This document shows positions 23,680 through 57,468 of a stretch of 64,000 bases of DNA, piece after piece. The DNA comes from Candidatus Woesearchaeota archaeon (GTDB taxonomy: Archaea; Nanobdellota; Nanobdellia; Pacearchaeales; JAHJTO01). Made by a program: the position numbers and the translations under genes. The first letter of the stretch is position 1, and every line of letters begins with the position of its first letter. The notes under the pieces were generated by a model. It was given only the letters and a program-made list of their open reading frames with translations. It had not been told where the DNA came from and did no database searches. The DNA is taken from contig CAZIKY010000001.1 of assembly GCA_964540065.1 (NCBI GenBank), positions 78,798 through 142,797 of the forward strand, in the 5' to 3' direction.

Positions 23680-23751
23680 CGCCTGTGTAGCTTAGTGGTA
23701 GAGCGCGAGTCTCATAAGCTCGAGGTCGTGGGTTCGACTCCCATCACAGGC
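23680..23751 (+). tRNA. tRNA-Met (anticodon CAT), elongator-type (G1:C72); tRNA-Ile2 (CAU) cannot be excluded
   Basis: Acceptor GCCTGTG/CACAGGC, D-stem GCTT/GAGC, anticodon stem CGAGT/GCTCG with loop CTCATAA, T-arm GTGGG-TTCGACT-CCCAT. Confidence 0.8.
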
Positions 23752-23757
23752 ATTAAA

Positions 23758-24204
23758 ATGAAGAAACTGATTCAAGTCCAGGCTATTCTCTACAGATTAA
23801 ATAAAAAAAGTTATGAATTCTTGGTACTTAAAAGAGTCCCAGAAAAAAAAGGTTTTTGGCAACCCATCACTGGAGGCAAAAAAGAAGGTGAAAGGATAAA
23901 GGATGCACTATACCGAGAGATTAATGAAGAAGCAGGAATAAAAGAGGAGGAGATATTAAACTCTAAAGAGGTTCATTCGTTCAACTGGTCAGCAAATGAT
24001 AGAGATAAGCCCGAAACAAAAATAAATTTTAAAGAATATGCTTTCGGGGTAGAAGTCAATTCAAAATCTAGAATTAGTTTGAGCAAGGAGCATGAAGAGT
24101 ATAAATGGATGCCATATGAGGAAGCACTTTCTCTAATTTATCATGAGACAAATAAAGAAAGTTTAAGAAGATTAAATAATTTATTAACAAATGGAAAACA
24201 ATAG
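23758..24204 (+). CDS. NUDIX hydrolase
   Basis: Nudix box GGKKEGERIKDALYREINEEAGI (Gx5Ex7REUxEExGU). The start is taken at the internal ATG at 23758 because the track ORF (from 23695) would overlap the tRNA. Confidence 0.8.
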   Translation: MKKLIQVQAILYRLNKKSYEFLVLKRVPEKKGFWQPITGGKKEGERIKDALYREINEEAGIKEEEILNSKEVHSFNWSANDRDKPETKINFKEYAFGVEVNSKSRISLSKEHEEYKWMPYEEALSLIYHETNKESLRRLNNLLTNGKQ

Positions 24205-24862
24205 GATAAGACTTTCTCCTTCTAAGCTAAACTTGTTCCTTGAGTGCCCACTTTGCTTTTGGATGGAAAATGTAGAGAAGATCCATCGGCCAAGAGGGAT
24301 TTTCCCAAGCCTTCCTTCAGGAATGGATTCTGTGCTGAAAAAATACTTTGATTCATTCAGAGAATCTGGAGAAATACCCCCGGAGATTGAGGGAAAAGTT
24401 GAGGGAGAACTCATGCAGGACCTGGAGCTTCTCAAAAAATGGACAAACAACCGAGTAGGAATCCAATTTGAAGATGAAGAATCTGGTGCTTTGTTGATGG
24501 GGGCGCTTGATGAATGCTTGGTCAATGGGGAAACATACATCCCTTTAGACTTCAAAACAAGAGGATTTGACCTCAAAGAAGACAGCACAGACTATTATCA
24601 AAACCAACTTGACACTTATTGCCTCCTTCTTGAAAAAAATGGCTTTAAACAGCCGGGCTTTGCATATTTGGTTTATTTCATTCCTGAAAAATATGAAGGC
24701 CAAGGAATTACAAAGTTCAAAATAGAAATTAAGAAGGTAAAAACTTCCCCGGAAAGAGCATTAAAGATTTTCAGAGAGGCAGTTAGACTCCTAAAATCTC
24801 AAAAACCTCAAGCCCATTCTAAATGCGAGTTTTGTTCTTGGCATTCTAGTTTTCACAATTGA
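24191..24862 (+). CDS. PD-(D/E)XK nuclease with four Cys (Cas4-like / RecB-family, DUF83-like)
   Basis: 223 aa. N-terminal SPSKLNLFLECPLCFW, motif II GALDEC, motif III IPLDFKTRG (ivDYKTG-like), a QNQLDTY motif (Q..Y) and C-terminal CEFC, giving 2+2 Cys. Confidence 0.6.
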   Translation: MENNRIRLSPSKLNLFLECPLCFWMENVEKIHRPRGIFPSLPSGMDSVLKKYFDSFRESGEIPPEIEGKVEGELMQDLELLKKWTNNRVGIQFEDEESGALLMGALDECLVNGETYIPLDFKTRGFDLKEDSTDYYQNQLDTYCLLLEKNGFKQPGFAYLVYFIPEKYEGQGITKFKIEIKKVKTSPERALKIFREAVRLLKSQKPQAHSKCEFCSWHSSFHN

Positions 24863-24904: not shown

Positions 24905-25975
24905 ATGGTCAATGTTGGATTAGCGATTTGGGATGATCACGGAAAGAGGGATTTGGTCAAAGACCTCAGAAGCCTGATAGCAATAATTAAAAAAGAGCAG
25001 AGAAAAGTTAAAGGAAATAGCTGCAGAATAGATCTCCTATCAGGACTAGAGCTCCAGGTAGAAGGCAAGTATCAGGGTTCTTCAAATGGTGATGGAGCAA
25101 CATGGCCTTCATTAAGTTATGATCAAGATGATTTCTTAGGCCATTTCTTTAACAGGCTTAAGCTGCTCACAGTCCATGCGCCTTGCAGCGGGAAAAACAT
25201 AATCTCCACGAGCGAGTCTGAAAGGAAATGGAGCATAGAGGAAACGAAAAAGGCAATGGACTTCACGTATAAAATCGGGGGGAGTTCTCTTGTTCTTCAT
25301 CCGGGAAGTGTTAACTATTGGAGCGACTTGTCAAAACCAAGAAGGGAGCAAGACGAAGAGAGGTTTTACGATTCTTTTAGGGAGCTTGCAAGGCATTATT
25401 TTGAAAAGGGCTATAATCGCCCACATCTTCGCGGTAAAATGTCTTTGGGGATAGAAAATATGGATCCGCCGCATTTAATAATGACAAGAAAAGAGCACGA
25501 AAGAGTCTTCAAAAGGTGTCTGGAAATTATGGTTGAAGAAAGTAAAGGCCAAAGCAAGGAAGAAATATATGATGGCAGCCTAAAAATGAGGGTAGATTTC
25601 TCTCATTACTGGAATAGCCACATAACGTTAAAGGAAAATCCGGATAAAAACTTTGTTGAGGGATATGATGAAATCACTAAGGGAGATATAATTAATTATT
25701 TTGCTAATCTTATAAGGGATAACTATTCTGCAATAGAAGGTTTCCATATGGGGGGATGTTACAACAATTCCCAAAGAAGGTCAAGAATAACTCATGGGCC
25801 AATAATGCAGATATCCAGAGTATATGATTGGAATGAGTTAAACTTTGAAAAGGTCTTAAACCTCCCAGGAGTTCTTGAAAAAAATTTGATTTTAGAAGTT
25901 TTTGGAGTTGATTTTAAAACGTTGATTTTCTCGCACCAAAATGTTTTGGATTATGTGAGTCAAAGGGAAAGGTAA
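24905..25975 (+). CDS. Divergent xylose-isomerase-like TIM-barrel protein resembling endonuclease IV (AP endonuclease family 2)
   Basis: 356 aa with VHAPCSG (cf. HAPY), LVLHPGS (cf. HPGS), GIENMD (cf. ENtAG) and DFSHYWNSH (cf. DTCH), in the same order as in Nfo. Confidence 0.45.
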   Translation: MVNVGLAIWDDHGKRDLVKDLRSLIAIIKKEQRKVKGNSCRIDLLSGLELQVEGKYQGSSNGDGATWPSLSYDQDDFLGHFFNRLKLLTVHAPCSGKNIISTSESERKWSIEETKKAMDFTYKIGGSSLVLHPGSVNYWSDLSKPRREQDEERFYDSFRELARHYFEKGYNRPHLRGKMSLGIENMDPPHLIMTRKEHERVFKRCLEIMVEESKGQSKEEIYDGSLKMRVDFSHYWNSHITLKENPDKNFVEGYDEITKGDIINYFANLIRDNYSAIEGFHMGGCYNNSQRRSRITHGPIMQISRVYDWNELNFEKVLNLPGVLEKNLILEVFGVDFKTLIFSHQNVLDYVSQRER

Positions 25976-25976
25976 G

Positions 25977-27395
25977 ATGACTATTGCAGAAACAAGAAAT
26001 TATTACCGTGGAGAATCAGTAATCCATAGGATGTTAGAATTCTGCGGAGTAGACCATCAAAAAGCTATAAATTTCAGTGTTAACGGAGAAGCATTATCTC
26101 AATCAAAAGAGTTGCAAAAACTAATTTCCGCAGGAACATCTGAATTTTTAGTGGGATGGGGAGGCCAGCTCTTAAGAGAAAGAGGGAATGCTAAGCAAAG
26201 AGTCCGTAACTTCAGTTTAGGATGGATCTTAGATAAGGGATTAGATGCCCATAGATCTCTGTGGGACAAAGAAAATACTTTGGGAGTAATAGATGTGGAA
26301 TATTTTTCTGAGAGATATCCTGGAGAAGCTTTTGCAAGACAAGAAGATGTTTTCTGGAGAATGGAGCCATTTTATCAGTGTGTCAAAGATTTATTATTCT
26401 CTTACGGAATAAAACCTTTAACGGTGGCAACAGGGCAAGGATATCATTTTGATTTTAGAGTTTCAAAAAACAGTCCTGCACATAAGATGCTTGAAGAAAT
26501 TGCTTCTCCAGAGGGCACAATAATGGATAAATATCGCCATCTAAGCGGAGATGTATTCACTAGAAAGGTAAGTGAACAAGAAGGCAAGGGATTTGAAGGA
26601 ATAGGCAAAGCAATAGAATTTATTATCTATGAAGCCATAAGAAAGTCTCCAGAATACAAGGGCAATATTCCCCTATCAATCGGAGATATTCCTTCAAATA
26701 ATGAAAAAAGGGAGGGGATAAACATAGATCTCTCACTTTTATGCGGTCCATTGAACATGAGATCCGTAAGAATTCCTTTTTCAAGTTACCATAAGCATAA
26801 AGCTAGTCCCTGGAAAGTTGGAGAGCAAGTATCTAGGGAAATCCCTGTACAAATAACTCTCCCGCGGTACACCCCTTGCAACAACAATGAACTTCTTTTA
26901 TATGAGCTTTTCAATAACAGAAGACATTTCCACAATTCAGCAAATTATGCTGGAGCCGTAACAACCCAAATACCTGAAGTGAATGAGGGTATTGCAAATT
27001 TGATAAAGAGCTATAAAAAATCGGAGCTATTCAAATTTCATAAAGTGTTTGATTCAGAACAGCATGACTCTCCGGAGAGATGGCAGCATTCTTATGACAG
27101 ATATCACAGCAGAGATGCAAGGATCGAAAGTTTATTGAGAAATCCTGCTCCTGCATTGCTTGTTCCTGCAAACATCCAATATTTGACGAGAAGGTTAATG
27201 CATGAAGGATGGCATCCAAAACATATAGCCGGATTATTAAGGTCCAAATATGAAAGAGATCATGGATGGGCAGAAGAAAAAGGCGGAAATTGGGATTTTT
27301 ATAAAAGAGACGCAGCCACACATGCAAACAAATGGGTTAGATTTTACAGTGGACTTATCACCACAGGATTAGACTACCTAGTTACAAGAGGGTAA
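25977..27395 (+). CDS. Archaeo-eukaryotic primase (AEP) superfamily primase-polymerase-like protein
   Basis: 472 aa. Motif I VIDVEYF (DxE), then about 50 aa later motif II TGQGYHFDF (sGxGxH), then RIPFSSYHKHK (the RxPGSxNxK-like segment of PriS/PrimPol). Confidence 0.4.
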   Translation: MTIAETRNYYRGESVIHRMLEFCGVDHQKAINFSVNGEALSQSKELQKLISAGTSEFLVGWGGQLLRERGNAKQRVRNFSLGWILDKGLDAHRSLWDKENTLGVIDVEYFSERYPGEAFARQEDVFWRMEPFYQCVKDLLFSYGIKPLTVATGQGYHFDFRVSKNSPAHKMLEEIASPEGTIMDKYRHLSGDVFTRKVSEQEGKGFEGIGKAIEFIIYEAIRKSPEYKGNIPLSIGDIPSNNEKREGINIDLSLLCGPLNMRSVRIPFSSYHKHKASPWKVGEQVSREIPVQITLPRYTPCNNNELLLYELFNNRRHFHNSANYAGAVTTQIPEVNEGIANLIKSYKKSELFKFHKVFDSEQHDSPERWQHSYDRYHSRDARIESLLRNPAPALLVPANIQYLTRRLMHEGWHPKHIAGLLRSKYERDHGWAEEKGGNWDFYKRDAATHANKWVRFYSGLITTGLDYLVTRG

Positions 27396-27991: not shown

Positions 27992-28960
27992 TTAAAGCTT
28001 GCGTATAACAAATTTACCTTTGAGGTTCTCCGCGACTTCTTCCCCCTTTTTGCTGAGCTTGCCCTTGGTCAAAAACAAAACCGGGAGCTTCAAATCCGCC
28101 CCTTCCTGATAAATTAGGGCCACATCGCCTTCATTTATGGATTTCTTGTTCTTTCCAAACAAAAAGAAGTCCAGTTTGCCTATCCCTGATTCAACTTCCA
28201 CTATTGCCTTGAAGTCCTTCCCGCCTGCATCAACCTCCCTCTTCAGCGCAACTTTATTCTCTTCCATCCAAGATTTGACTTCATTATTAAAACTAGAAGG
28301 GGCAGGCGATTTTTTTCGAGGCTTTTTAAGAGTTTTTTCCAAATCTGGAACTCTCTCTTCTTCGTCTTCCTTAGAAAGTTCTTCCGAAGGCTTCTCTAAA
28401 ACTTCTTTTTCAGTTTCGGCCTTAAGTTCTTTTTCGGGAATTTTAGGCGATTCGAGGGCCGAAGATTTAACTGCGGGAGTTTGAGAGGGAGCTTCTTCAG
28501 TCAACAAAGATTTTATCTTCTTTCCCGCCTCTTCCGGCTGTAGTAGATGGAACCTCCAGAAAAGTTTCTCTTCTCCGGATTGGACAATTGTCATAGGCAT
28601 GGCAAAATCTTTCATATTCCTAAATGCAACTCTAATCGCTGGCTCGCACTTTTTATCCTCTGCCACCCCTTTCTCCTTCAAGATAGTATGAGCTTCTCTT
28701 TCTTTAAAATCAAGAAACTTAGTATATCCTTCAAGCTTCTCTTCCTGCCCTCTGACAAAATATAGCGGGCTTCCTCCGACTTTGAGATTGCTGGACAAAA
28801 TAACCTTTTCCCTTAAAAGCTCTGAAAGCAGAGCCGAGGCAAGAAAGCTGTTTAAATTCAAAGTTTTTGAGATAGCATGGGCAACAAGCGGCCCGTTATT
28901 TTTGACATAGTCTGCAATCCTGCTTTTCTGCTCGGCAACATTTACCTTAAATCCTTCCAT
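27992..28960 (-). CDS. Hypothetical protein with an N-terminal winged-helix-like domain and an acidic/Lys-rich linker
   Basis: 322 aa with no Cys and no catalytic motif. The central region is low-complexity E/K/S-rich. Confidence 0.3.
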   Translation of the reverse strand: MEGFKVNVAEQKSRIADYVKNNGPLVAHAISKTLNLNSFLASALLSELLREKVILSSNLKVGGSPLYFVRGQEEKLEGYTKFLDFKEREAHTILKEKGVAEDKKCEPAIRVAFRNMKDFAMPMTIVQSGEEKLFWRFHLLQPEEAGKKIKSLLTEEAPSQTPAVKSSALESPKIPEKELKAETEKEVLEKPSEELSKEDEEERVPDLEKTLKKPRKKSPAPSSFNNEVKSWMEENKVALKREVDAGGKDFKAIVEVESGIGKLDFFLFGKNKKSINEGDVALIYQEGADLKLPVLFLTKGKLSKKGEEVAENLKGKFVIRKL

Positions 28961-34529: not shown

Positions 34530-35156
34530 ATGATGAGATCCCTCGGAAGGTTATCTCTTGCAATTCTAACTGCTAGCTACGTTACTCTCTCTAATCCTTT
34601 AGAGATTTCAGCAGAAACTAAAGGTGCCGATAAGGGTAAAAAAGAGATCAAATACTTCAGGGGAAAATCAGATTATGATCCTGCAAAGGTAAAAGCTGAA
34701 AGGAAGAAACGGGCACAGGAAGATAAACAATATAGAGAAGTTGTCTTTGAAACATTCAAAGATTATGTCTCAACACTAATCGCCAAAGAATTCGGAGTAA
34801 TCCCTTATTTCTTTGCACCAAAATATTTTTCGAGATGGAAAGGGAAAATGGTTGACCTCAACCCAGAGGAGATAAAGGGCAACTTGAATAAAGCCCTAAG
34901 TGTCAAAGATTTCAGCAGAGTAAAACTCGAAGAATTGATTATTGGAGATGACCCGAATAATCAAGAGAGATTTAAGATAAGGAAACTGTCTGAATTCAGG
35001 AAAGAGTTTAGAGAAAGAGGGTACAAAGAGAAAATACTTTCAAATGACTATCTTGTAATCACAGACTTAAACAAGGAATTGCCTATTCAATCAAAAACTT
35101 TCTTCAGATGCGAAAAGGGTGATACCCGTTGTAAGATTATCGGTGTTTCTTATTAA
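34530..35156 (+). CDS. Secreted hypothetical protein
   Basis: 208 aa. N-terminal signal-like segment (LSLAILTASYVTLSNPLEISAE), then a highly charged K/E-rich body. Confidence 0.35.
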   Translation: MMRSLGRLSLAILTASYVTLSNPLEISAETKGADKGKKEIKYFRGKSDYDPAKVKAERKKRAQEDKQYREVVFETFKDYVSTLIAKEFGVIPYFFAPKYFSRWKGKMVDLNPEEIKGNLNKALSVKDFSRVKLEELIIGDDPNNQERFKIRKLSEFRKEFRERGYKEKILSNDYLVITDLNKELPIQSKTFFRCEKGDTRCKIIGVSY

Positions 35157-38100
35157 GCTACTTCTAGGCATAACCGGCTTCCAGAGTTATATTCACAATT
35201 TAGCTTTGCTACACTCGTGCATGCTTCATTCGTGCAAGCAGAAGGATTACCGTCAAATTCACTACATGAAGGGGCGGAGGCACATGAGCTGCAGCTCCCA
35301 AAAGAGTCTTCAAAAGGCCATATTTCTGGCTTGTAATAACATGAAGTGTAAGAAAGTTCATTCCCTTTTATCTCAAGGGCGATGTTGCCGCAGTTATTTC
35401 TTGTGCAAAGAGAAGTTACTCCCTTCCCACATTCTCCACAGCTTGAAGGATTATTTTTCTTAAAATTTTCAAACTCTTGAGCTTCAACTGCACTTAAGGT
35501 GATATTTATTCTTTTTCCGGGAGCAAGGCTTGCACTTTCCAAATTATTTTCCCTTATTATCTGCTGTACTTTAGATCTCGCCCGGTCATCAAGTTGAGAT
35601 TCATAACCATAAATCTTTCCTAGAGTATTCAAGACAAAATCTGCTAAAAGCTCTGTTCTAGAAACAGTATAATAAATTGTCTGCGGGGATCCCCAAGAAG
35701 TTATCTGGCCCCTCGTAGTTTGCTCTCCAGAAAAGACTATTCCATCTTGGGAATCTGCTACAGCAGATTCTTGACAAAGTCGGTAATTCTCCAGAATATC
35801 ATTAGTGTAAGAAACTACATTAGTTCCAAGATCATCTGCAAGTCTTCTTCCCCTAACCATGAATTGAGAAGAGCTTGTAGTCCTAATCACATTTTCAAGA
35901 TCACTCCAGGTATTAACTTTATAAAATTTTATGGCCCCTTCTAAATTTGGCCCCCCAACAAGATATTCTGCAAGTGCAAAACTTACTGGTTGATCTTTTC
36001 TCCGATGTTTATTATGGACACTTATTAGATGAGATAATCCTGCACGGATATTTGTTCTTGGGTCTTTAAGATCATCCGGATCAGTTATCTGTGGAGCAGG
36101 ACCATTTCTGCCAAATAAGATTTGCATAAGGCCTATAGCATTAGAAACAGAAACAGCATTAGGATTGCCACCAGACTCTCTCAAGATCAAGGCTTTTACA
36201 AGAGTATGTGTCTCGTATTCGCTATACCTTTCACTTGCGCCAATTTCAGCCATAACTTCCCTAATCAACTCACCATATTGGCTTTCAACATTGCTACATT
36301 TTAGTTTTTTGTTCCCTGCAGATTGCCCAGTGCCAGTCACTGTTTCAGTTGGTGCAGGCAAAGTTCTCAGCTCAGTAACAATCAATTTGTAGATCTCAAC
36401 GATTTTTATTCTAGACAATGCCTTATATCGGTTAGAGATGCTCGATTCTGCCACCCTATTAAACTCTGAGAATGCTCTGCTAGCCCTCAACGCCTCTGAG
36501 ATATCCTGGTCAATTACTGCTGATTCTTTTCTAGAGGTCTTTCCTTCACTTATTATCTTTTTCAGCTGCCTCAAAAGATTGTCAAGCTCTTCTTTTCTGT
36601 CGCCAGTAGTTAGTTTGCTGTAAATATCCCTGCTTTCCTGCTCAGTTACGATCTTCCCTTCCTGAGTCAAAAGATTAATGCTTTGATTCCTCGACTCTTC
36701 CAAAGTTAGATTTCTAAGTCCAAGATCCCTTATTGCATTGCTGACAGTATTTCTGTCCAGCCAGCAGCCAATCCTGCCGTCAGGATCACAGAATCCAACT
36801 TTATCCCATCTGTTAGGATCACTTCTCAAACCGGGATTATCTCCAGAGCAGATCCTTACAATTCCTCTCCTGTAAATTTCTGGCTGGACTGCCTCTCCAA
36901 TGCCTCCGACCCCTGGCTGAGCCAAAACTGGAAGGAGTGCTTCCGGCAAAGACTCTGCAGCAAGAAGAGTAGATTTTCCAGCAGTGCATTCATCTTCAGT
37001 CTTTATCTGATAATCTGGAACAGTCTGAGACGCAACATAATAATCTGTAATCTCTTGCACTCCAAATCCGGTTGTCGCTTTCTTAAATCCGCAATAATCT
37101 TTTAAGTTTACCCTTACACAAAGCTGCTTATATCCGCTAGGCAAAATTACATCCCGAGTTATATCTGCTGATTCTCCGATGGGGGTGTATCCTGTCTGTA
37201 TGATTGCCCTTTCAGGAATATTTATTGTGGGAACAAATGCTGGCTCCGCAAGATAAACGGTCCAGTAAGCCGGCTCATCTCTTCCGGCAAAGATATGCCA
37301 GAATACTTTGTATTGAGAGCTTTGAGGGACAGTAACTGATGAAAAGGGAATTTCATCAAACCAGGCATTTATTTGAACGGGAGACTCCGGTCTTGCAAGC
37401 TCATCGAACAGATTTGCAGAATCAGGATACCTTAAACCAATAAATGCCTTGCATAAGAAGCTTCCTGCTTCAGCAGTCGATCTGACTTGGAATGCCCTTA
37501 ACGCGTTTGCACCATAATAATTTGTAAAGAATTGTACTTGCTGGACGCTGTTTTCATAAGCGCTTGCAAATGTCATATATTCTCCGCCTCCGCCGCGGCC
37601 ATAGACTGTTCTTTCAACTAAATTGGGGATTCCAACTTTGAGTAAAGGTGTTAATTCTTTCCAGAAAAACTCGCAAAGATATACGCTTTTAAGCTGGTCG
37701 CATATTCCGACATTTCTTCCAGTCTCCAAATTTTCCTGAAGGCACCTTCTAACGTCTTTCAAAACACTCACTAAATTATCCAAACCTGCATGGACTCCAG
37801 TTAAACAAACTGGGACAGCAACTCCTCCTTTCTCTCCTCCGAGTATTCCTGGAACCCCTGCATTGGGCAGACACAATGCCAAACTCCCAACAATTCCTGT
37901 CTGCACAACATTATCTGTAGGGAATCTTCCTCCGAAGTCGCATCTGCTTGGAGGGCATAAAACTGGATCGCATAAGTTGTAAAGGAGATTACATCTTTCT
38001 GGAGACATGACATCTTCACATTCAATTCCGGGAGAAGTAGCCTTAGCTTGGCCAACCGGAACAGTTATTCCACATGAAGGAAGTGAAATTGGCTGTCCAA

Positions 38101-41100
38101 CTTTTGCATTCCTAGATTGTGAGGCGGCTTCCTTCAAGCATCTTGAAGCTTGGATGACAAAAAGCCTTGTCTGTTCTTCAGTAAGAGGCCCCAAACCACC
38201 TTGGCCTGGCTGATAATTCTCCGTAAGAGGGAAATATCTTGAGCAAGGAGAGTCGTCTCCTGAAGGATTGTCGACATAATCAATATTGCCATCTGGCCCA
38301 ACATTTGCTATCCAGAAGTGTGTGGGTTCTCCGGCTTCTGTATAAGACTCAACATTAGTTATGCCTGCCCTCAAGCTGTCTCCATACGGCCTTGTCGCCG
38401 CATACCATCCCTGGCTTCCATCTGGAGCTTGCCCTAAAGGAATAATTGCAGGCAATCCAGAATAAGGCCCGCTTCCCCAGTATCTTATCTCAGGATTCTG
38501 AAGTACATTGCTGCAGGATCTTCTTCCAGCAACCCTAAGCACTTTATTTCTCAAAACAACAGATTCAGGATCACTAACTTTAGTGACCTGCCCATTATCT
38601 AACTTGAAGTAATTTCCTGTAGGAAGATAAAAGTCTCCTTCACCTTTCGTGACAACCAAGCCGAATACTCCTGTGGCTACAAAAGGTTCAGCGAAGTCCG
38701 TCCTCGTTACCCTTGCATTTACTAAATTAATCAAGGCGATTGTGTCTCCTTCCTTAACCCCCAATCCTTCCAGATTTTGTGAAACTCCTGTAGTTTTTTC
38801 AAGGTCTTTTAAAGGTATTACGACTGCATCTGTGGCCTTGCCTTCAACGATTGTAGGTATGGTCGCTCTAAGATTGGGGAATATCTGGCTGACAGAATTT
38901 TTTGCTAAACTGGAATCCACAATGTTTTTGTGAAGAGTTTCATATTTAGTAAGCCTCTCAAAAAGTTTCTGTTCATATCCTTTACAGAATGCGCTACCAG
39001 GAGATAGTTCCTTTCCTTCACGGCACTTAGCAATAATCTGCGCTTCAGTATTCAGATCTCTGGTTTCTTCAAAGCTTAGGGTCTCATTTCCATAAAGACT
39101 TGAGAACCTGCTTAAGGCAGCACTGACTCTTGAAGGATCTAAAGTCTGATTCTGCCCATTTAAGTCAATACCACTTATCCCGCCGAGGTTATATCTGTTG
39201 AAAACTTCTGTCTGGAAAGCATCGACTAAAACTTTCCTGCCTTCAGGAGTTATAGTCTCTTTGCAGATTATTCCAATAAATGTGCAGTCTTTTTTTATTA
39301 CTCCCGGGGTTTTCTTAAGGGTCTCACTTAGCTTATTGGAATCTTCAATAACATTTTGCAGAGAATCTATCTGCTTTCCGATATCTTCACGAGATTTAAA
39401 AATGCATTCGTTGAAATCATTAGTCCCTATGCTCTGTTGATTAGATTTTTCATTGCACCATTCAGTCCATCCTTTGTAAGTTCCTCCTCTTGCACCAGTA
39501 AGGGTAGCTTCCCTCATGACAATCTGTCTGGCAAGAGCCTCCCCCTTTGAAACAAAATTTTCTATGAAATTTGTGGCCCAGATAGCTGCACTTCCTGCAA
39601 GGCAAACTTTTCTCCAAGTCATCACAAGATCTCCTAATCTTTGAGTGATTTCCTCAAATTGAGTGATAGTATTATCAAGCTGGGAGATCAAAGATTTTGT
39701 CTGTTCAGTACTAAGTTTTATTGCCCTCTTTTCTATCCCAATATGCACTGAGAAATTTGCAAAGGTCTCGCCTTCTTTGCTAAACGGATGAATTGAAACT
39801 GTAGCTTGCCTCTGAAGATTTATTCTCTCAAGCCGTACGTCGATTGTATCACTTAATTTCTCTGACTGCCCTCTTCTTAATGTGACTTCACTTCTCTTTA
39901 ACTGCTCATTTGGCCTGAAGTCGCTTATCCTTCTTAGGAATACTGAAGTTTCATCAATCCGTTCAACCTGCCAATCCGATCCGATCACTTCCTTAAAACC
40001 AACAGTCCTAATTTCATTATTGACAAAGATCTCTGCTCCAAGTTCTGCAGTTGTTGGCCTGGATAAAGTCTCCAAAGCAACATAATAAGTTCTTCCGCCT
40101 GAAGAGATAATCTTGGTAGCTTCATTTGTGTCTCCAGAAGAATAAATATCCTTAAGTCTCTGCCTTGCTTTTGGAGTCTTTGTTGACTGAGGATATCTGT
40201 TGATTATTTCTTCAAGAATTTTTACTTGATCTTGGTTTTTTCCCAATATCCTTGCAGTTTCAGCTGCCTGCCATAAGGCATTCTCACCAAGGAATTCTCC
40301 CTGAGGCGTATCTACTTCTTTTTCGTTAGGGAAATCTTTAACGACAGTTTCATAATTTGCCTTGTACAAAGCATAATATTTCTCCACGACAGGCTGATAG
40401 CTCTGCTGAAGTATCGCATCCACGCTTACAACCTCAATAACTACCCCATCAACAAGGCTATCGCTCCTATCAACTACAACAATTGAATCCGATCCGGCAA
40501 CTTCCCTTAAGGCCGAAGCAAAACTGCTTTGACTAGAAGCTTTAGCTCTGACATCAGATCCAGCAAGGAACCGCTCTATCCTCTTGTTCGTCTCAGTTAT
40601 CTGTTTTGGATCTCTTGTTTTTTGAAGTACCACTATTTTCCATTCTTCATTAAAGTTTTCTCTCGGAATAAGGTACTTCCCAACAAAAGAAACAGTGAAG
40701 TTGGAAGTTGGCTTTCCAGCCACATTCACTGAAAGCAAATCTCCTCCTCTGTACTCTTTGATCCCCTCTTCTCCTACCTTTATCCTTGCTATCGCTCCAG
40801 GCTTATTCAAAACATAAAGACCCTCGGGACATTGCAGCGAAACTCTTCCGCCGACCCCATACGATGAAGGGGAAACCTCTGTAACCCTGCACCGATTATC
40901 TAAAACCATCATCCCTTCACCGATATCAATGGAATTTCCGTTAACATTTAAGGTAGCTTTATCTTTAGGTGCATCTATTTGATTTAGCCGGATATTCAAT
41001 CCGGCACCGCAGTACATTCCCGGAAGGTAGACCAAAGAGGACCTTTTTCCAGGTTCAAGAGTGAAAGTCTGTAAAGGTCTTTCAGGTCCGGCATAAATTG

Positions 41101-41839
41101 CGACTTGAGCAGTATTTCCACTTATTCCAAGAACACGCACATAACCCTTGCCGTTCCAGAATCCATATCTCTGATAATCTCTTTGCCATTGCTCCTCTGT
41201 TAGAACTGGGAGAATAAAGTTGTCATTCGTTATTCCAAAGCTTGTGGTGACGTCATAGGTTATCCTAGCAGTTAAATTTGCATTTATCGAATCTGGCATG
41301 TCTCTCTCTGCAGGAATCTGATTTAAAACAACGACTACATATCCTAATTCTCCGCTTATAGGAGAACCGACAAGCTCATCAAAAGGAGTTGTCTGCTTTA
41401 AGGCAGCCCTATATGGGTGGAAAAGAATCGCCTTTATTCCTTCAGGAGCCCTGGCCCCAGAAGCAAAGTTTACACTCCTTATATGGGGCACTTCTATAAG
41501 AGGATTCGTTTTCAAAGTAGTTAGTTTGCAAAATACTGGAATGGACTGTTCTTCAAGAAGGTCAGATCTTACAACAGCAGGGCTGCAGGATCCTGGAAGA
41601 ATATTAAGCACAAAATCCTGCCCTTGTCCGTCCTGGCAGAATTGCTGGTCAATTGTCGGGAAATAATATTTTGAAGCTTCTCCATAATAACTGAACGGCG
41701 AATATTGGTAAGAGGGTATGGCTGAAACTTGCGCAGAAACAAATGCTGGATCAGAAACTAAGAATACTGCAAAAGCTACTGCTAAAATTATCGAAAACTT
41801 CTTCATTAAAAGTTTTTTATTTATTTCTCCTTTTGCCAT
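35153..41839 (-). CDS. Giant (2228 aa) secreted, Cys-rich surface protein with a C-proximal GH23/SLT lytic-transglycosylase-like domain
   Basis: Uninterrupted 6.7-kb ORF. Sec-type signal peptide (KKFSIILAVAFAVFLVSDPAFVSAQV). SLT motifs LILRESGG (catalytic Glu at about residue 1888, nt 36176..36178), AIGLMQI and ALAEYLVGGPN. A mid-protein and a C-terminal Cys-rich segment (last about 95 aa). Confidence 0.7.
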   Translation of the reverse strand: MAKGEINKKLLMKKFSIILAVAFAVFLVSDPAFVSAQVSAIPSYQYSPFSYYGEASKYYFPTIDQQFCQDGQGQDFVLNILPGSCSPAVVRSDLLEEQSIPVFCKLTTLKTNPLIEVPHIRSVNFASGARAPEGIKAILFHPYRAALKQTTPFDELVGSPISGELGYVVVVLNQIPAERDMPDSINANLTARITYDVTTSFGITNDNFILPVLTEEQWQRDYQRYGFWNGKGYVRVLGISGNTAQVAIYAGPERPLQTFTLEPGKRSSLVYLPGMYCGAGLNIRLNQIDAPKDKATLNVNGNSIDIGEGMMVLDNRCRVTEVSPSSYGVGGRVSLQCPEGLYVLNKPGAIARIKVGEEGIKEYRGGDLLSVNVAGKPTSNFTVSFVGKYLIPRENFNEEWKIVVLQKTRDPKQITETNKRIERFLAGSDVRAKASSQSSFASALREVAGSDSIVVVDRSDSLVDGVVIEVVSVDAILQQSYQPVVEKYYALYKANYETVVKDFPNEKEVDTPQGEFLGENALWQAAETARILGKNQDQVKILEEIINRYPQSTKTPKARQRLKDIYSSGDTNEATKIISSGGRTYYVALETLSRPTTAELGAEIFVNNEIRTVGFKEVIGSDWQVERIDETSVFLRRISDFRPNEQLKRSEVTLRRGQSEKLSDTIDVRLERINLQRQATVSIHPFSKEGETFANFSVHIGIEKRAIKLSTEQTKSLISQLDNTITQFEEITQRLGDLVMTWRKVCLAGSAAIWATNFIENFVSKGEALARQIVMREATLTGARGGTYKGWTEWCNEKSNQQSIGTNDFNECIFKSREDIGKQIDSLQNVIEDSNKLSETLKKTPGVIKKDCTFIGIICKETITPEGRKVLVDAFQTEVFNRYNLGGISGIDLNGQNQTLDPSRVSAALSRFSSLYGNETLSFEETRDLNTEAQIIAKCREGKELSPGSAFCKGYEQKLFERLTKYETLHKNIVDSSLAKNSVSQIFPNLRATIPTIVEGKATDAVVIPLKDLEKTTGVSQNLEGLGVKEGDTIALINLVNARVTRTDFAEPFVATGVFGLVVTKGEGDFYLPTGNYFKLDNGQVTKVSDPESVVLRNKVLRVAGRRSCSNVLQNPEIRYWGSGPYSGLPAIIPLGQAPDGSQGWYAATRPYGDSLRAGITNVESYTEAGEPTHFWIANVGPDGNIDYVDNPSGDDSPCSRYFPLTENYQPGQGGLGPLTEEQTRLFVIQASRCLKEAASQSRNAKVGQPISLPSCGITVPVGQAKATSPGIECEDVMSPERCNLLYNLCDPVLCPPSRCDFGGRFPTDNVVQTGIVGSLALCLPNAGVPGILGGEKGGVAVPVCLTGVHAGLDNLVSVLKDVRRCLQENLETGRNVGICDQLKSVYLCEFFWKELTPLLKVGIPNLVERTVYGRGGGGEYMTFASAYENSVQQVQFFTNYYGANALRAFQVRSTAEAGSFLCKAFIGLRYPDSANLFDELARPESPVQINAWFDEIPFSSVTVPQSSQYKVFWHIFAGRDEPAYWTVYLAEPAFVPTINIPERAIIQTGYTPIGESADITRDVILPSGYKQLCVRVNLKDYCGFKKATTGFGVQEITDYYVASQTVPDYQIKTEDECTAGKSTLLAAESLPEALLPVLAQPGVGGIGEAVQPEIYRRGIVRICSGDNPGLRSDPNRWDKVGFCDPDGRIGCWLDRNTVSNAIRDLGLRNLTLEESRNQSINLLTQEGKIVTEQESRDIYSKLTTGDRKEELDNLLRQLKKIISEGKTSRKESAVIDQDISEALRASRAFSEFNRVAESSISNRYKALSRIKIVEIYKLIVTELRTLPAPTETVTGTGQSAGNKKLKCSNVESQYGELIREVMAEIGASERYSEYETHTLVKALILRESGGNPNAVSVSNAIGLMQILFGRNGPAPQITDPDDLKDPRTNIRAGLSHLISVHNKHRRKDQPVSFALAEYLVGGPNLEGAIKFYKVNTWSDLENVIRTTSSSQFMVRGRRLADDLGTNVVSYTNDILENYRLCQESAVADSQDGIVFSGEQTTRGQITSWGSPQTIYYTVSRTELLADFVLNTLGKIYGYESQLDDRARSKVQQIIRENNLESASLAPGKRINITLSAVEAQEFENFKKNNPSSCGECGKGVTSLCTRNNCGNIALEIKGNELSYTSCYYKPEIWPFEDSFGSCSSCASAPSCSEFDGNPSACTNEACTSVAKLNCEYNSGSRLCLEVA

Positions 41840-41857: not shown

Positions 41858-43720
41858 TTATCTAAGTGTAATTCCAACAGTTGAAACTGCAATATTATTG
41901 TAAACGTCCTGCAGTTCCAAAACAGTTCTAGGGGTTGGCTGCGCACCAATCTCCACACCAACGAAACTTGCTGCTTCCAAATCTTCATCTGTAAACATTA
42001 CATCAGCAGTGCCACCGCCGATAGTAAGCTGATTGAGCTCTTGGGCAGGCTGACTGATAGTATAACATTCTTCTCTGTCAAAGCCTAAAACTCCGAACAG
42101 TCCGCTTCTAGGAACACTCACACATTTCTCAACGCTTTGTGCTTCAAGGACGATCCTTCCTTCTTTGAAAAGGTAAGAAGTTACCTTATAGTTCCCCTCA
42201 ACAAGATTTATTCTATTCTGTTCTGGATATAAAATGCTTTCAGTAGCGTCTTCAGAACTGAATGTTACTAAAGCAGTCTCGCCCTCTTCCAGCCTTACGA
42301 GATCCTTAAGTACAACAACTTCAAGATTATGCTTTGGCTTCATTATAACAACTGCGCTTTCCACTTCATTCGTTGAAACTTGGACCCTTGCATCAGCATA
42401 GCCTTCTTTTTTAGCGATGATAAATCCGTTAACGCATTGAGGGAATTGTCCTTCAAGATTTCCTTCCTCTGCAAAGCCTACTCGACAGACGGTCCCTGCG
42501 CATTTAAAGCTTACATCTGCTTCAACAGAAAATCCTTGGAGATCAATCACATCTACATTAACCTCTTGGGTCTTGAATTGGCAAAGCTCCTGCACTTCTC
42601 CTTCCGGACTTTCGATTGGAACTTCTCCTCTTGGAAGATTATTTTCAACTGAGACAATCACGGGAAATTGGAAAAGACCGAAGTCTTCATCGAAAATTTG
42701 CACCATTACTGGATAAGTAACGGTATAGACGAAGTGATAAGGGACATAACAGAATCCCAGTATTCCGAGCCCCTCTTGGTTTCCTATTGGGTCTGCCCTT
42801 AAAAGATCATCAGTAGAAGGGACTATCTCTATTTTTGTGGGGAAATTTTGATCATAAATGAAATTCACTTGTTCTCCTTCTAAGCCAAGATCCAGGTCTC
42901 TTTCAAAATATTTTCTTTCATCACTTGAAAGATCATAGTAATTTCCGGCGACCCTTATTGTAGGGATGTTGTCTGCAAGTGCAGTCTTAAGATCGCTAAC
43001 AATTTGTTGCTTCTGCCATATCTTGGGGCTGCAGGTCAATTCAACTCCTGTCCCCGGGACATATAATGCGAGGATATCTGTGGTGTACTCTTCAAAAAAC
43101 TTAAGATTTTTATGCCGGTCATAAAGTGCTGTAGACAGATCATAAAGCCTTCCAAAATTGCTTCTTACAGAAGTAGAGTAAGAAGTGATCCTTCTCGAGG
43201 TCTGTTGGTAATCGATTGTAACAGGCCATTCAAGATCCACATAAACTCTGTCAGACCTCAGATCAACATTTATATTAGAAGGCTCTTCCAAAGTAAAGAC
43301 ATAGCCTTCTTGTTCAAGAGCGGAAAAGTCACAGTTAAGAAGATTTTGAGAGATATAATCCTCTAGTTGATTTTCCATCGAGCTTATAGAAGGGACTTGC
43401 TCTTTGTATATTCCATTTGCAGAGAGGTAAAACCAGAAAGGAATTGTTGATCCAAAAAATTCTAACTGGGAAGTTGAAGGAGCATATTCGCTTCCAGGTT
43501 CAAACTCTGGAAGTTCAATGTATCCGCCTTGTTCCCCCATAGTTTCAAGACCCTCGAGAGCCAAGTCAGAAACGCACCCTAAAATTTGATCATTAACTGG
43601 CGCAACATCTGCAGGCAGACCAAACGGCCTCAAACCTAAAGAGTATGCAAGAACAATTCCTGCGACAAGCAAAATCGCAATGATTACATATAGGGCAATC
43701 TGGCCTTTCTTATTCGACAT
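41858..43720 (-). CDS. Acidic secreted protein with an N-terminal class III (type IV pilin-like) signal/anchor
   Basis: The probable start is the internal ATG giving MSNKKGQIALYVIIAILLVAGIVLAYSLG (K-K-G then a hydrophobic helix). About 620 aa. The track ORF from 43837 overlaps tRNA-Val, so its N-terminal extension is discounted. Confidence 0.5.
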   Translation of the reverse strand: MSNKKGQIALYVIIAILLVAGIVLAYSLGLRPFGLPADVAPVNDQILGCVSDLALEGLETMGEQGGYIELPEFEPGSEYAPSTSQLEFFGSTIPFWFYLSANGIYKEQVPSISSMENQLEDYISQNLLNCDFSALEQEGYVFTLEEPSNINVDLRSDRVYVDLEWPVTIDYQQTSRRITSYSTSVRSNFGRLYDLSTALYDRHKNLKFFEEYTTDILALYVPGTGVELTCSPKIWQKQQIVSDLKTALADNIPTIRVAGNYYDLSSDERKYFERDLDLGLEGEQVNFIYDQNFPTKIEIVPSTDDLLRADPIGNQEGLGILGFCYVPYHFVYTVTYPVMVQIFDEDFGLFQFPVIVSVENNLPRGEVPIESPEGEVQELCQFKTQEVNVDVIDLQGFSVEADVSFKCAGTVCRVGFAEEGNLEGQFPQCVNGFIIAKKEGYADARVQVSTNEVESAVVIMKPKHNLEVVVLKDLVRLEEGETALVTFSSEDATESILYPEQNRINLVEGNYKVTSYLFKEGRIVLEAQSVEKCVSVPRSGLFGVLGFDREECYTISQPAQELNQLTIGGGTADVMFTDEDLEAASFVGVEIGAQPTPRTVLELQDVYNNIAVSTVGITLR

Positions 43721-43796
43721 TTTCCCTCTTTTAAGCTCATTTAAAGAGGAAAAAGTGATATATAAAGGTTGTTCAATAATCTCGAAGAAAAATAAA

Positions 43797-43868
43797 TGAC
43801 CCCAGGAGGAGTCGAACCTCCATTTGGTCCACGTCAAGGACCCGTCATAGCCGCTAGACCATGGGGTC
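43797..43868 (-). tRNA. tRNA-Val (anticodon GAC)
   Basis: Minus-strand cloverleaf: acceptor GACCCCA/TGGGGTC, anticodon stem GGTCC/GGACC with loop TTGACGT, T-arm GGAGG-TTCGACT-CCTCC. A TTTAAAAC box lies about 30 nt upstream at 43897..43904. Confidence 0.8.
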
Positions 43869-52597: not shown

Positions 52598-53752
52598 ATG
52601 TTCAATTTCTTCAAAGAAAAAATAAAGAAGGCTTTTGAGAAAATAAAGGGTACTGAAGAAGACTTAGAAGAAGAATCCAAGGAGGCTAAGAAAGAGATTA
52701 AGGAAGAAAAAAAGAAGGTTGAAAAGCTCAAGAAGGAAGAAAAAGGACTCAAAAAAGAGGAAAAGAAGAAGGAAAAAGAGGCTAAAGAAGCTGAAAAGAG
52801 CAAGAAAGAAGAGATAAAAGAGGACATTAAGGAGATCAAAGAAGAAGTAAAAAAGGTAGAGGAAAAAAAGGAGGAAAGGATTGGCATTCTCGGAAGGATC
52901 AAGGAAAGGCTTATTACATCGACCCTCACGCAGGAAGGATTTGAAGAGCTTTTCGAGCCATTAGAGCTAGCATTAATCGAAAACAACTTCTCGATAAAGA
53001 TCATAAGAAAGCTAAAAGAAAGGCTTGAGAAAGAGCTTGTTGAAAAGCCTTTCAAAAAAAGCGAAGTTGAATCAAAAATTAAAGAAGAGTTGAAAAATGT
53101 TATAAGGAATTCAATAATCGAGCCTTTCGACCTTATAGAAAAGATAAGGGAAAAGAAGGATAAGCCATTCACAATAGTTTTCTTCGGAATAAATGGTGCG
53201 GGAAAGACGACAACCATTGCTAAGATAGCTCATAGGCTTCATCAAAATAAAATGAAATGCGTTTTAGCGGCAGCAGACACATTTAGAGCAGCAAGCATTG
53301 AGCAGCTGGAAAAGCATGCCCAAAAACTCGATGTCAAGGTGGTCAAACATGATTATGGTGCAGACCCTGCAGCAGTTGCTTTTGATGCGATCGCCCATGC
53401 AAGATCAAAGAATATTGATGTTGTCTTGATAGACACTGCAGGAAGAATGCACACAAAAACTGATTTGATGAAAGAGATGGAAAAAATATGCAGAGTTGCA
53501 AAGCCGGATTTGAAAATCTTCGTTGGAGAAGCCATAACTGGCAGCGACTTATTGGAGCAGCTTAGCAAATTTAATGATTCTATAGGGATAGATGCCGCAA
53601 TCCTTACAAAGGCAGATGTAGATGAAAAAGGTGGAGCTTTAATCAGTGTAGGAGAAGTAACCGGAAAACCAATAATCTTCCTGGGGATGGGCCAGGAATA
53701 CGGAGATCTAAAAATCCTGGATAAAGAAAAAATCTTAGAAAGCTTATTCTGA
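52598..53752 (+). CDS. ftsY: Signal recognition particle receptor FtsY
   Basis: 384 aa. K/E-rich N-terminal A-region, then an NG domain with GINGAGKTTTIAKIA, DTAGR and TKAD. Confidence 0.9.
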   Translation: MFNFFKEKIKKAFEKIKGTEEDLEEESKEAKKEIKEEKKKVEKLKKEEKGLKKEEKKKEKEAKEAEKSKKEEIKEDIKEIKEEVKKVEEKKEERIGILGRIKERLITSTLTQEGFEELFEPLELALIENNFSIKIIRKLKERLEKELVEKPFKKSEVESKIKEELKNVIRNSIIEPFDLIEKIREKKDKPFTIVFFGINGAGKTTTIAKIAHRLHQNKMKCVLAAADTFRAASIEQLEKHAQKLDVKVVKHDYGADPAAVAFDAIAHARSKNIDVVLIDTAGRMHTKTDLMKEMEKICRVAKPDLKIFVGEAITGSDLLEQLSKFNDSIGIDAAILTKADVDEKGGALISVGEVTGKPIIFLGMGQEYGDLKILDKEKILESLF

Positions 53753-54287: not shown

Positions 54288-55676
54288 ATGGTACTTGAAA
54301 AACTCGGGAATGTATTGAAGAGCACGATGAAAAAGATAGCAGATGCTATCTTCGTAGACAAGGCCCTAGTCGAGGGGATCATCAAGGACCTAAAGTACTC
54401 CCTTCTTGAAGCAGATGTAAATCCTGCTTTGATCAGCGATCTTGCAGAAAAAATAAGAAAAACTGCCCTTGACGAAAAAACCAAGCTCGACAGGAAAGAA
54501 CAGCTTATCAAATTAATCCATGATGAAATGGTTAACCTTCTTGGAAAAGAGAAATACGACCTTCCAACAGGCGCCCAAAAGCCACTCAAAGTAATGTTCC
54601 TCGGGCTTTACGGTTCAGGAAAAACAACTACTATCGGAAAACTGGGAATGTATTACTCTAAGAGGGGCTTCAAAACCTGCCTTATAGGCCTTGATGTCCA
54701 TAGGCCAGCCGCTCCAGAGCAACTCGAACAGATTGCCCAAAAGGCAAAACTTCCCGTGTTCATAAACAAAACAGAAAAATCTGCAATTAAGATTTGGAAG
54801 GAGTTTGAAGATAAGATAAAGAAATATGATCTTGTCTTAATAGACACTGCTGGAAGAGATGTTCTAGACAAGGAACTTATAAAAGAGCTTGAGGATCTCA
54901 ACAAAACTATCAACCCTGCCCAAAAAATCCTCGTTATCCCTGCAGACATCGGCCAGACCGCAAAAAAGCAAGCCTCTGAATTCCAAAAATCTGTTGGAAT
55001 TAACGGAGTCATAATCACAAGAATGGACGGCACTGCAAAAGCAGGCGGTGCCTTAACGGCCTGTGCAGAAACTAATGCTCCAGTATTATTTGTGGGAACC
55101 GGTGAAAAGCCCCAGGACATAGAAACTTTCAATCCTACAGCTTTTGTCTCAAGGCTTTTAGGAATGGGAGATTTAGAAGCGCTTTTAGAGAAAGCGAATC
55201 AAGCAATCGAAAAAGAAAAAGCAGAGAAGCTGGAAAAAAGCTTGGCAGAGGGAAAATTCTCTCTCCTAGAATTCTATGATCAGATAAAGGGAATGCAAAG
55301 CATGGGGCCTCTTGGAAAGATAATGGAGCTTATTCCAGGACTAGGTGGGGCAAAGATGCCTGAAGGCCTTTTAGATGTTCAGGAGAAGAAGCTGAAAAAA
55401 TGGAAGGCTGCAATGGACAGTATGACTCAAACAGAAATAGAAGATCCAGATTCCATAGAAAGCAAAAGGATAACAAGAATCGCTAAGGGTTCGGGCACTT
55501 CTCCAGGAGAGATCAAAGAAATGTTAAGCCAATACAAAGTAGTCAAACAATTTGCAGCAAAAGGAAAGGGGATGGACCTTTCACAGATGCAAAATCCCCA
55601 AGATTTGATGAGAAATATGGGTGCAAAGCAGCTTAGAAAGCTGGCAAAGAAGTATAAAGGCCAGCTACCGATTTAA
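54288..55676 (+). CDS. srp54: Signal recognition particle protein SRP54
   Basis: 462 aa. N domain, G domain (GLYGSGKTTTIGKLG, DTAGR, TRMD) and a Met-rich M domain (GMQSMGPLGKIMELIPGLGG). Confidence 0.9.
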   Translation: MVLEKLGNVLKSTMKKIADAIFVDKALVEGIIKDLKYSLLEADVNPALISDLAEKIRKTALDEKTKLDRKEQLIKLIHDEMVNLLGKEKYDLPTGAQKPLKVMFLGLYGSGKTTTIGKLGMYYSKRGFKTCLIGLDVHRPAAPEQLEQIAQKAKLPVFINKTEKSAIKIWKEFEDKIKKYDLVLIDTAGRDVLDKELIKELEDLNKTINPAQKILVIPADIGQTAKKQASEFQKSVGINGVIITRMDGTAKAGGALTACAETNAPVLFVGTGEKPQDIETFNPTAFVSRLLGMGDLEALLEKANQAIEKEKAEKLEKSLAEGKFSLLEFYDQIKGMQSMGPLGKIMELIPGLGGAKMPEGLLDVQEKKLKKWKAAMDSMTQTEIEDPDSIESKRITRIAKGSGTSPGEIKEMLSQYKVVKQFAAKGKGMDLSQMQNPQDLMRNMGAKQLRKLAKKYKGQLPI

Positions 55677-56812: not shown

Positions 56813-56814
56813 CT

Positions 56815-57468
56815 TTACTTGCCTGTTCCCGTTCCTCTTGGAGCACCGCATCCAAGAATCCCGAAATCCCGGTATAAATCATAAGAATCTTTTCTTCGAT
56901 AATCCTTTTTTTCTTCATTAGTTTTTGGAATTTCCTGGACGATCTTTACGTCTTTCCACTCATTTGCTAGGGCATAAAAAGGGCATTCTGGCGGGATGCC
57001 CTGCACATGCAACACATTTACTGAATTTTCTAAGTATCGTGCAAGGGAAATTCTATGCAACCCATCAACAACAATATTCATCTTAACTTCTATGGGGTGA
57101 TCATATTTTATGTCTCCACGAGTATCATGATAGATCATTTTCTCCTCGCTAACTTCAACAATAGGGGGAATTAGCATATGCACTTCTCCATTTATGTCTA
57201 ACTCATATCCTCCCGTGAGTTTAAGGGGATCTATGCCATGTTCTCCTAGAAGATGAAGCCTCATGTCTCTCAAAGATTCTAATCTATCTTGCAAAAGGTA
57301 TTTGCTTCCGGGATTCAATTCTGTCCAAAACATCTCTCTTAAAACAATTCGAGCTTTTTGATAAGGAAATACTTTTGGGGAGTTGGGATCTTTAGATTTA
57401 AGAGGGACTGACCTGACTTCACTTATGAGTTTTTCGAGAGGAATGTGTTTTCGGACTAAGACTTTCAT
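56815..57468 (-). CDS. Hypothetical protein in the thymidylate cluster
   Basis: 217-aa ORF with no recognised motif. Translationally coupled on both sides (stop 2 nt before the downstream Tmk-HAD gene start at 56812; its own start overlaps the upstream ThyX-like gene by 4 nt). Confidence 0.35.
   Translation of the reverse strand: MKVLVRKHIPLEKLISEVRSVPLKSKDPNSPKVFPYQKARIVLREMFWTELNPGSKYLLQDRLESLRDMRLHLLGEHGIDPLKLTGGYELDINGEVHMLIPPIVEVSEEKMIYHDTRGDIKYDHPIEVKMNIVVDGLHRISLARYLENSVNVLHVQGIPPECPFYALANEWKDVKIVQEIPKTNEEKKDYRRKDSYDLYRDFGILGCGAPRGTGTGK

Follow-up and report, generated by a model that had tools for sequence, protein, structure and literature searches.

A chromosomal archaeo-eukaryotic primase-like protein from an unannotated, mostly bacterial family, encoded next to an MJ1311-like TIM barrel

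We analysed a 64-kb stretch of DNA from a Candidatus Woesearchaeota archaeon (contig CAZIKY010000001.1, positions 78,798 to 142,797; this whole stretch is referred to below as the window), and focus here on a gene for a 472-amino-acid, archaeo-eukaryotic primase (AEP)-type protein and on the gene directly upstream of it, which encodes a TIM-barrel protein. The window has a G+C content of 36–43%, its genes recognised by eye include TFB, ribosomal protein S17e, a tRNA-splicing endonuclease, RNase Z and GlyRS, and it further carries Alba (identified with Pfam), several tRNA genes, AlaRS, LeuRS and SRP54. By gene content it is archaeal and chromosomal, with the AEP gene flanked by housekeeping genes. 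The stop codon of the AEP gene occupies 27393–27395 and a convergent Alba gene starts 16 nt beyond it, whilst at the other end the stop codon of the TIM-barrel gene lies 1 nt ahead of the AEP start, with a purine-rich stretch before the ATG (junction GGGAAAGGTAAGATG). The features of the locus are as follows.

25977–27395, plus strand: AEP-family open-reading frame, 472 amino acids; no library match, assigned from an AlphaFold model and homologs
25977–26141, plus strand: N-terminal helical region, residues ~1–55, from alignment conservation and model helices at 3–51
26142–26876, plus strand: AEP catalytic core, residues ~56–300
26286–26306, plus strand: motif I (hhhDhE), VIDVEYF, residues 104–110, on model strand 100–111
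26430–26456, plus strand: motif II (sxH), TGQGYHFDF, residues 152–160, on model strand 155–163
26718–26735, plus strand: motif III (hD), INIDLS with D251, at the end of model strand 246–251
26760–26801, plus strand: segment RSVRIPFSSYHKHK with R262, R265, S269 and K273, predicted to contact the incoming nucleotide
26769–26801, plus strand: RIPFSSYHKHK, residues 265–275
26877–27392, plus strand: C-terminal all-helical domain, residues ~301–472, probably a cysteine-less, truncated version of a PriL-CTD/PriX/PriCT-like module
27210–27236, plus strand: WHPKHIAGL motif of the C-terminal domain, with W412, P414, H416 and G419 invariant
24905–25975, plus strand: partner gene, a 356-amino-acid long-form MJ1311-like TIM barrel (PF01261)
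24191–24862, plus strand: Cas4-like PD-(D/E)XK nuclease gene (PF12705, PADLOC Cas4), context only

A preliminary description of the locus had proposed an AEP/PrimPol protein from three motifs in a set order, an acidic pair, a glycine-rich element ending in histidine and an arginine–serine–lysine segment. The 472-amino-acid frame and all three motifs were located in that order (residues 104–110, 152–160 and 265–275), and the proposed distance of about 50 residues between motifs I and II agrees with the 51 residues from D106 to H157. The AlphaFold model of the whole protein (pLDDT 95.1, pTM 0.94) sets motifs I, II and III on the strands listed above, where AEPs are expected to have them, and all three satisfy the published AEP definitions hhhDhD/E, sxH and hD (PMC10250227). 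Conservation of the catalytic residues, which the same description had proposed as a check, was counted in about 146 aligned homologs, a partly redundant set, and it held: D106, G155, D251, R262 and R265 are each present in 146 of 146, K273 in 145 and S269 in 144, position 108 is always acidic (E in 141, D in 5), and position 157 is mostly histidine (H in 131, N in 13, S in 2), the asparagine variant being limited to one clade of mostly Thermodesulfobacteriota and Desulfonatronospira loci. In the N-terminal region Y10, R18, E21 and G24 are nearly invariant in the family alignment. D106, E108 and D251 are the predicted metal ligands and H157 the predicted motif II residue, whilst R262, R265, S269 and K273 may contact the incoming nucleotide by analogy to the R.PGS.N.K segment of other AEPs.

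Comparison of the model core with known folds placed Prim-PolC with gapped DNA (6sa0) closest, at a score of 16.7 over 245 aligned residues, followed by the LigD-Pol of P. aeruginosa (15.0), the Methanocella non-homologous end-joining (NHEJ) polymerase (14.4) and the LigD-Pol of M. tuberculosis (14.3). Lower scores went to PriS (10.9–12.2 for the Pyrococcus, human, yeast and Sulfolobus proteins), the CRISPR-associated Prim-Pol (10.8), RepB' (9.2–9.4), human PrimPol (6.7) and pRN1 ORF904 (6.5). Because the motifs fall on the expected strands and the fold comparison agrees, we regard an AEP fold with an intact active site as virtually certain. The original AEP assignment thus stands. Within the superfamily the core groups with the AEP-proper clade, to which LigD-Pol and PriS belong, rather than with that of the PrimPols. 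The protein is not recognised as a PriS: there was no PriS match in Pfam, and the combination of a PriS match with a separate PriL was not found.

The family to which this protein belongs is almost invisible to existing libraries. The AEP frame had no match in Pfam or NCBIfam at E ≤ 1, nor in PADLOC or PHROGs, and 47 family members searched against Pfam at E ≤ 10 had none either, the LigD and Prim-Pol models included. Searches of PDB sequences with the single sequence (phmmer) and with full-length and C-terminal-domain profiles (hmmsearch) returned chance matches only, among them a cellobiohydrolase (E 2.1) and D-amino-acid aminotransferases (E 0.5), which were set aside. Among 5.8 billion proteins we found 86 homologs at 28–47% identity over the full length (~97–99% of the query), every one unnamed or called 'hypothetical', and an exhaustive hidden Markov model search of 1.84 billion cluster representatives recovered only 686 at E ≤ 1e-3, of which 320 reached E ≤ 1e-30. 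A search for the motif WHP[KR]H[IV]AGL found relatives in 374 of 185,579 species genomes, a patchy and rare distribution. Among the matches listed (80 of the 374 relatives) all are metagenome-assembled genomes, the archaeal carriers being Micrarchaeota, Woesearchaeota and uncultured Methanosarcinales, and the bacterial ones Elusimicrobia, Clostridia, Planctomycetota, Chthoniobacterales, Thermodesulfobacteriota, Hydrogenedentota, Ignavibacteria, PVC-group members and others. Most family members are bacterial and the proteins span 455–540 amino acids. No relatives were found in 2.9 million IMG/VR viral contigs, in phage records or in plasmid records.

Behind the catalytic core lies a second, all-helical domain of about 170 residues, and not the extension of about 250 that had been described earlier. 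It houses WHPKHIAGL, the best-conserved motif of the family, and in homologs it also carries four cysteines, kept in 45, 44, 44 and 40 of 47 sequences, one within an LPPC motif and three within a C-terminal NCxS...C...CG tail. When only this domain was queried against Pfam, PF04104 (DNA_primase_lrg) ranked top, with 4 of 34 members matched and a best E-value of 0.0024; the cysteine-bearing homolog P0012, whose domain model reached a pLDDT of 89.7, scored 14.4 bits, below the 22.4 cut-off, in a match that spans PPC to WHPKH. Its cysteine spacing, C-x85-C-x8-C-x4-C, resembles that of the NEQ395 ligands C289, C364, C376 and C384. A Foldseek search of the domain model against the PDB gave nothing significant, which counts against a PriL-like identity. 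Weighing the PF04104 rank and the cysteine spacing against this null result, we consider that the domain is probably a PriL-CTD/PriX/PriCT-like module, and a [4Fe-4S] cluster is likely, judged from the ligand pattern, in those members that bear the cysteines.

The window protein departs from this pattern in three places: it reads RDAR-IESLL at the LPPC site, carries an AEEKGGN insertion and ends about 30 residues short. A frameshift or assembly error behind the missing tail was considered and rejected, because the convergent Alba gene begins just past the stop codon and the first cysteine site, which lies inside the open-reading frame, is likewise replaced. Cluster-less relatives such as PriX, the pRN1 helix bundle and cysteine mutants of NEQ395 still prime, therefore the cysteine-less window copy may remain active. 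In other AEPs it is the PriL-type helical module that keeps the template in place, together with the initiating nucleotide or the 5' end.

Gene neighbourhoods were compared at 83 non-redundant loci, and the TIM barrel emerged as the AEP's only conserved partner. A TIM-barrel homolog is adjacent on the same strand at 43 of the 83, in archaea and in at least 8 bacterial phyla, either as a short form (~280 amino acids) downstream of the AEP (32 loci) or as a long form (~390 amino acids) upstream (11 loci). The 1.84-billion-protein library additionally contains two natural fusions of an AEP with PF01261, P0106 (747 amino acids) and P0121 (724 amino acids). Functional coupling of the AEP to the TIM barrel is therefore very probable; we take the two genes to be translationally coupled, and the two proteins probably bind each other physically. 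The preliminary description had placed two nucleases in an operon with the AEP; the TIM barrel survives as a conserved partner, whilst the Cas4-like gene had no counterpart beside the AEP at any other fetched locus.

The window partner matches PF01261 at E 5e-11 (43.2 bits, cut-off 31.1), and the profile of its family matches MJ1311 (3wqo) at E 2e-41. Seven residues are invariant in the family (H91, H132, E184, D231, H234, H281 and E331 in window numbering), which also conserves a DDH or xTH motif. The trinuclear metal site of E. coli endonuclease IV (Nfo) has nine ligands, which we take to be H69, H109, E145, D179, H182, H216, D229, H231 and E261; hhalign related the partner family to Nfo with a probability of 95.5% and aligned eight of them (H109, E145, D179, H182, H216, D229, H231 and E261) with conserved partner columns. 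The short-form partner keeps all of these endonuclease IV-type ligands. The window long form has H91, H132, E184, D231, H234, H281, H297 and E331, of which H297 would be the conserved histidine once a 3-column MAFFT offset is corrected. MJ1311 itself reportedly has the nine endonuclease IV zinc ligands. It has been listed as a predicted endonuclease IV homolog of M. jannaschii (Kiyonari et al. 2009).

The analysis shows an AEP fold with a conserved active site, the order of the domains, and genes that are coupled to the TIM barrel or fused with it. Together these describe a predicted single-chain AEP nucleotidyltransferase, catalytically intact as judged from its sequence, of a family that carries no annotation. 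As a whole the findings are best explained by a two-enzyme chromosomal module for DNA repair or damage tolerance, to which we give a probability of about 0.5; the DNA-repair role taken by itself stands at the same even odds. In such a module, damage such as a blocked 3' end or an abasic site would first be cut or cleaned by the TIM barrel, leaving a gap for the AEP to prime or fill; here we infer the substrates, the order of the steps, whether the AEP primes or fills gaps, the Fe-S cluster and the physical association of the two enzymes. A precedent exists in mycobacterial base excision repair, where Prim-PolC fills gaps of 1–3 nt and the reconstituted pathway works best with endonuclease IV as the 3'-end processor (PMC5663958). 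On the best-supported reading, by analogy, the present family would hard-wire a Prim-PolC/endonuclease IV-like pairing by adjacency, and in two cases by fusion. A more specific version, in which uncultivated anaerobic bacteria and some archaea possess a machine made of a single-chain [4Fe-4S] PriL-type primase and a physically linked, in some cases fused, MJ1311/endonuclease IV-like phosphoesterase in one complex, is put forward only tentatively, as less likely than not.

Several observations weigh against the repair module. About half of the loci lack a TIM-barrel neighbour: 14 have a tandem AEP paralog instead, 15 have neither and a further 11 sit at a contig edge and could not be assessed. 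The partner profile scores sugar 3-epimerases (E ~1e-19) above endonuclease IV (E ~1e-10), and MJ1311 is said to lack the DNA-binding groove of endonuclease IV. Neither a ligase nor Ku is among the recurrent neighbours found by clustering the 83 loci, in which no scan was aimed at either, and a recurrent AEP-TIM-HisRS-AspRS gene order also counts against it. In the window itself all four cysteine ligands are missing from the AEP, although the predicted [4Fe-4S] ligand set is present at family level, and the long-form partner reads RITH, without an equivalent of Nfo D229. Because both the cysteine ligands and the D229 equivalent are missing, the window pair could be a weakened one.

The alternative that survives best, although we think it unlikely, is that the enzyme is a repair polymerase like LigD-Pol or Prim-PolC that acts solely in gap filling or end joining and does not prime de novo, its C-terminal domain being no more than a clamp on DNA or on a 5' end. 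The fold of the core lies closest to these enzymes, yet a PriL-CTD-like module is a hallmark of priming AEPs, no LigD or Prim-Pol model of Pfam matched even at E 10, and ligase or Ku genes are not conserved nearby (again with no scan aimed at them).

Improbable, in our view, is a replicative primase of a small archaeal genome, or a back-up to one, in the form of a monomeric PriS-PriL fusion like NEQ395. A single chain with an AEP core and a PriL-like domain fits NEQ395, the window is an archaeal housekeeping region (TFB, Alba, tRNA-splicing endonuclease, RNase Z), and priS and priL are absent among the annotated open-reading frames of the window, a view limited to 64 kb of the genome. However, most members occur in bacteria (Elusimicrobia, Clostridia, Planctomycetota, Verrucomicrobiota), and bacteria replicate with DnaG. 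The patchy distribution over 374 of 185,579 species genomes, the missing PriS match and the tight coupling of the AEP to a phosphoesterase argue in the same direction.

We give equally little credence to a pair acting on RNA, for example on damaged tRNA, in which the TIM barrel would strip off a 3'-phosphate or a 2',3'-cyclic phosphate, leaving the AEP to lengthen or restore the end. Its attraction is the gene order: a co-directional AEP-TIM-HisRS-AspRS arrangement is found in ~17 bacterial loci, partial arrays included, of Elusimicrobia, 'Clostridia' metagenome-assembled genomes and unclassified bacteria (L015, L024, L026, L036, L037, L040, L041, L050, L054, L057–L060 and L062), the window cluster likewise sits among tRNA genes, GlyRS, a tRNA-splicing endonuclease and RNase Z, and NHEJ-type AEPs prefer ribonucleoside triphosphates. 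Yet the hisS-aspS synteny may be mere lineage inheritance, it is absent from the archaeal, Thermodesulfobacteriota, Planctomycetota and Verrucomicrobiota loci, and to our knowledge all characterised AEPs act on DNA templates.

Very improbable, lastly, is a primase-polymerase that serves a mobile element or anti-phage defence. In its favour, mobile elements encode many bacterial AEPs that have PriCT-like helical domains (PMC5862659), and a Cas4-like gene lies upstream in the window. Against it, a mobile-element origin was rejected on the absence of relatives from IMG/VR viral contigs, phage records and plasmid records, PADLOC and PHROGs were silent, no integrase, helicase or replication genes occur among the recurrent neighbours at the 83 loci, Tandem Repeats Finder detected no repeat array in the window besides one short A/G-rich repeat (52730–52824), and the Cas4-like gene does not accompany the family at other loci.

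Returning to the proposed two-enzyme repair module, its components resemble several known systems and differ from each. Mycobacterial Prim-PolC and the LigD-Pol of bacteria and archaea, AEP polymerases of NHEJ and base excision repair (6sa0, 2fao, 2iru, 5dmu), have no detectable sequence similarity to the family in Pfam or PDB sequences; compared with them, the family has the extra PriL-CTD-like domain and the TIM-barrel partner or fusion, and lacks a recurrent ligase or Ku neighbour. The single-chain PriS-PriL primases NEQ395 (Nanoarchaeum equitans) and PolpTN2 (plasmid pTN2) share with the family an AEP core followed by a four-cysteine PriL-CTD-like domain in one chain, and NEQ395 is similarly compact (393 versus 455–540 amino acids). 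However, the genome that encodes NEQ395 has no other primase, HHpred identifies NEQ395 as PriS plus PriL, and PolpTN2 is plasmid-borne, whereas the present family is mostly bacterial and chromosomal, falls below the PriS and PriL model thresholds and is coupled to a phosphoesterase, with a window copy that lacks the cysteine ligands. PriCT domains have been described as exclusive to AEPs of mobile elements (Kazlauskas et al. 2018, PMC5862659), and PriCT-1, PriCT-2 and PriX domains belong to mobile elements and Crenarchaeota, whereas the family has no mobile-element context. On the partner side, the match to MJ1311 is to an orphan of unknown function and eight Nfo ligand positions align with columns of the partner family, whilst the window long form has insertions and no D229 equivalent.

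An AEP joined to a PriL-like helper domain is of a known kind, as in NEQ395, PolpTN2 and PriCT-bearing PrimPols. Within the libraries and the literature that could be searched, three things appear new: a separate chromosomal family without annotation, found mostly in bacteria, its partnership with an MJ1311/endonuclease IV-type phosphoesterase, which looks obligate, and natural cysteine-less variants that include the window protein. We found no literature linking an AEP with a xylose-isomerase-like or endonuclease IV-like partner. Archaea and eukaryotes use AEPs as their replicative primases, and in bacteria AEPs are the repair polymerases for end joining and base excision repair. The PriL-type Fe-S domain has so far been regarded as nearly exclusive to replicative primases, and the PriCT domains, its relatives without a cluster, as confined to mobile elements (PMC5862659); the family puts a PriL-like domain into chromosomal genes of many bacterial phyla. 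If the repair role is true, the pair would define a two-enzyme pathway that is new and offer a compact system in which to learn how the helical domain and its Fe-S cluster serve an AEP; the cysteine-less forms that occur naturally, the window protein among them, would be built-in controls. If the more specific machine exists, it would bring a PriL-type Fe-S module into bacterial cellular DNA metabolism and give the MJ1311 family a first function. If the repair role is wrong, the family remains a clean addition to the AEP catalogue.

Beyond the TIM barrel, the only families that recur within 4 kb of the AEP at the 83 loci are HisRS, AspRS, DUF374 and an LpoB-like protein. A separate Elusimicrobia subgroup has the order DUF374-AEP-LpoB-like, with overlapping stops and starts. 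Tandem AEP genes come in two kinds. In Woesearchaeota and uncultured Methanosarcinales a divergent second paralog lies directly downstream of a cysteine-bearing copy (L007:6189-7520, L008:7765-9111, L010:9506-10828 and L012:9400-10698); it is cysteine-less, about 440 amino acids long and retains the catalytic D, E, H and D, and this tandem of a cysteine-bearing and a cysteine-less copy suggests a heteromeric pair. In the PVC group and related candidate phyla two full-length paralogs stand in tandem (L017, L022, L032, L033, L034, L046, L051, L052, L053, L067 and L068), both with catalytic residues and cysteines retained, and as these loci have no adjacent TIM barrel the two arrangements look mutually exclusive. 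P0173 (612 amino acids) is a further fusion within the family, with a CBS pair N-terminal to the AEP.

The remaining genes around the pair in the window, namely the Cas4-like, NUDIX, HIT and EndoIII genes, were considered as parts of the system and rejected, as they are not neighbours of the family elsewhere. The Cas4-like gene stands alone; it matches PF12705 at E 3e-12 and PADLOC Cas4 at E 7e-10, with cysteines at 19, 22, 212 and 215, and the NUDIX gene ends 14 nt inside it. For the NUDIX frame, the GTG that was called mechanically as the start (23695) is overlapped by tRNA-Met (23681–23752), and the true start is probably the ATG at 23758 (MKKLIQ...). Between the S17e and tRNA-splicing endonuclease genes, a 322-amino-acid frame (27992–28960) has no Pfam match and a Lys/Glu-rich central linker. 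A giant frame of 2228 amino acids (35153–41839) has a transglycosylase SLT domain (residues 1878–1947) as its sole Pfam match and is followed by one of 659 amino acids without a Pfam match (41858–43837). Further downstream (55673–59315), a fusion of thymidylate kinase with a HAD-like hydrolase (392 amino acids) adjoins a 616-amino-acid protein whose C-terminal part weakly matches ThyX (Thy1); at another Woesearchaeota locus (L001), separate dNK/thymidylate-kinase-like and HAD genes lie within ~3 kb of the AEP gene. The ribonucleotide reductase large subunit (59389–62700, 1103 amino acids) is split by an intein with a LAGLIDADG homing-endonuclease domain.

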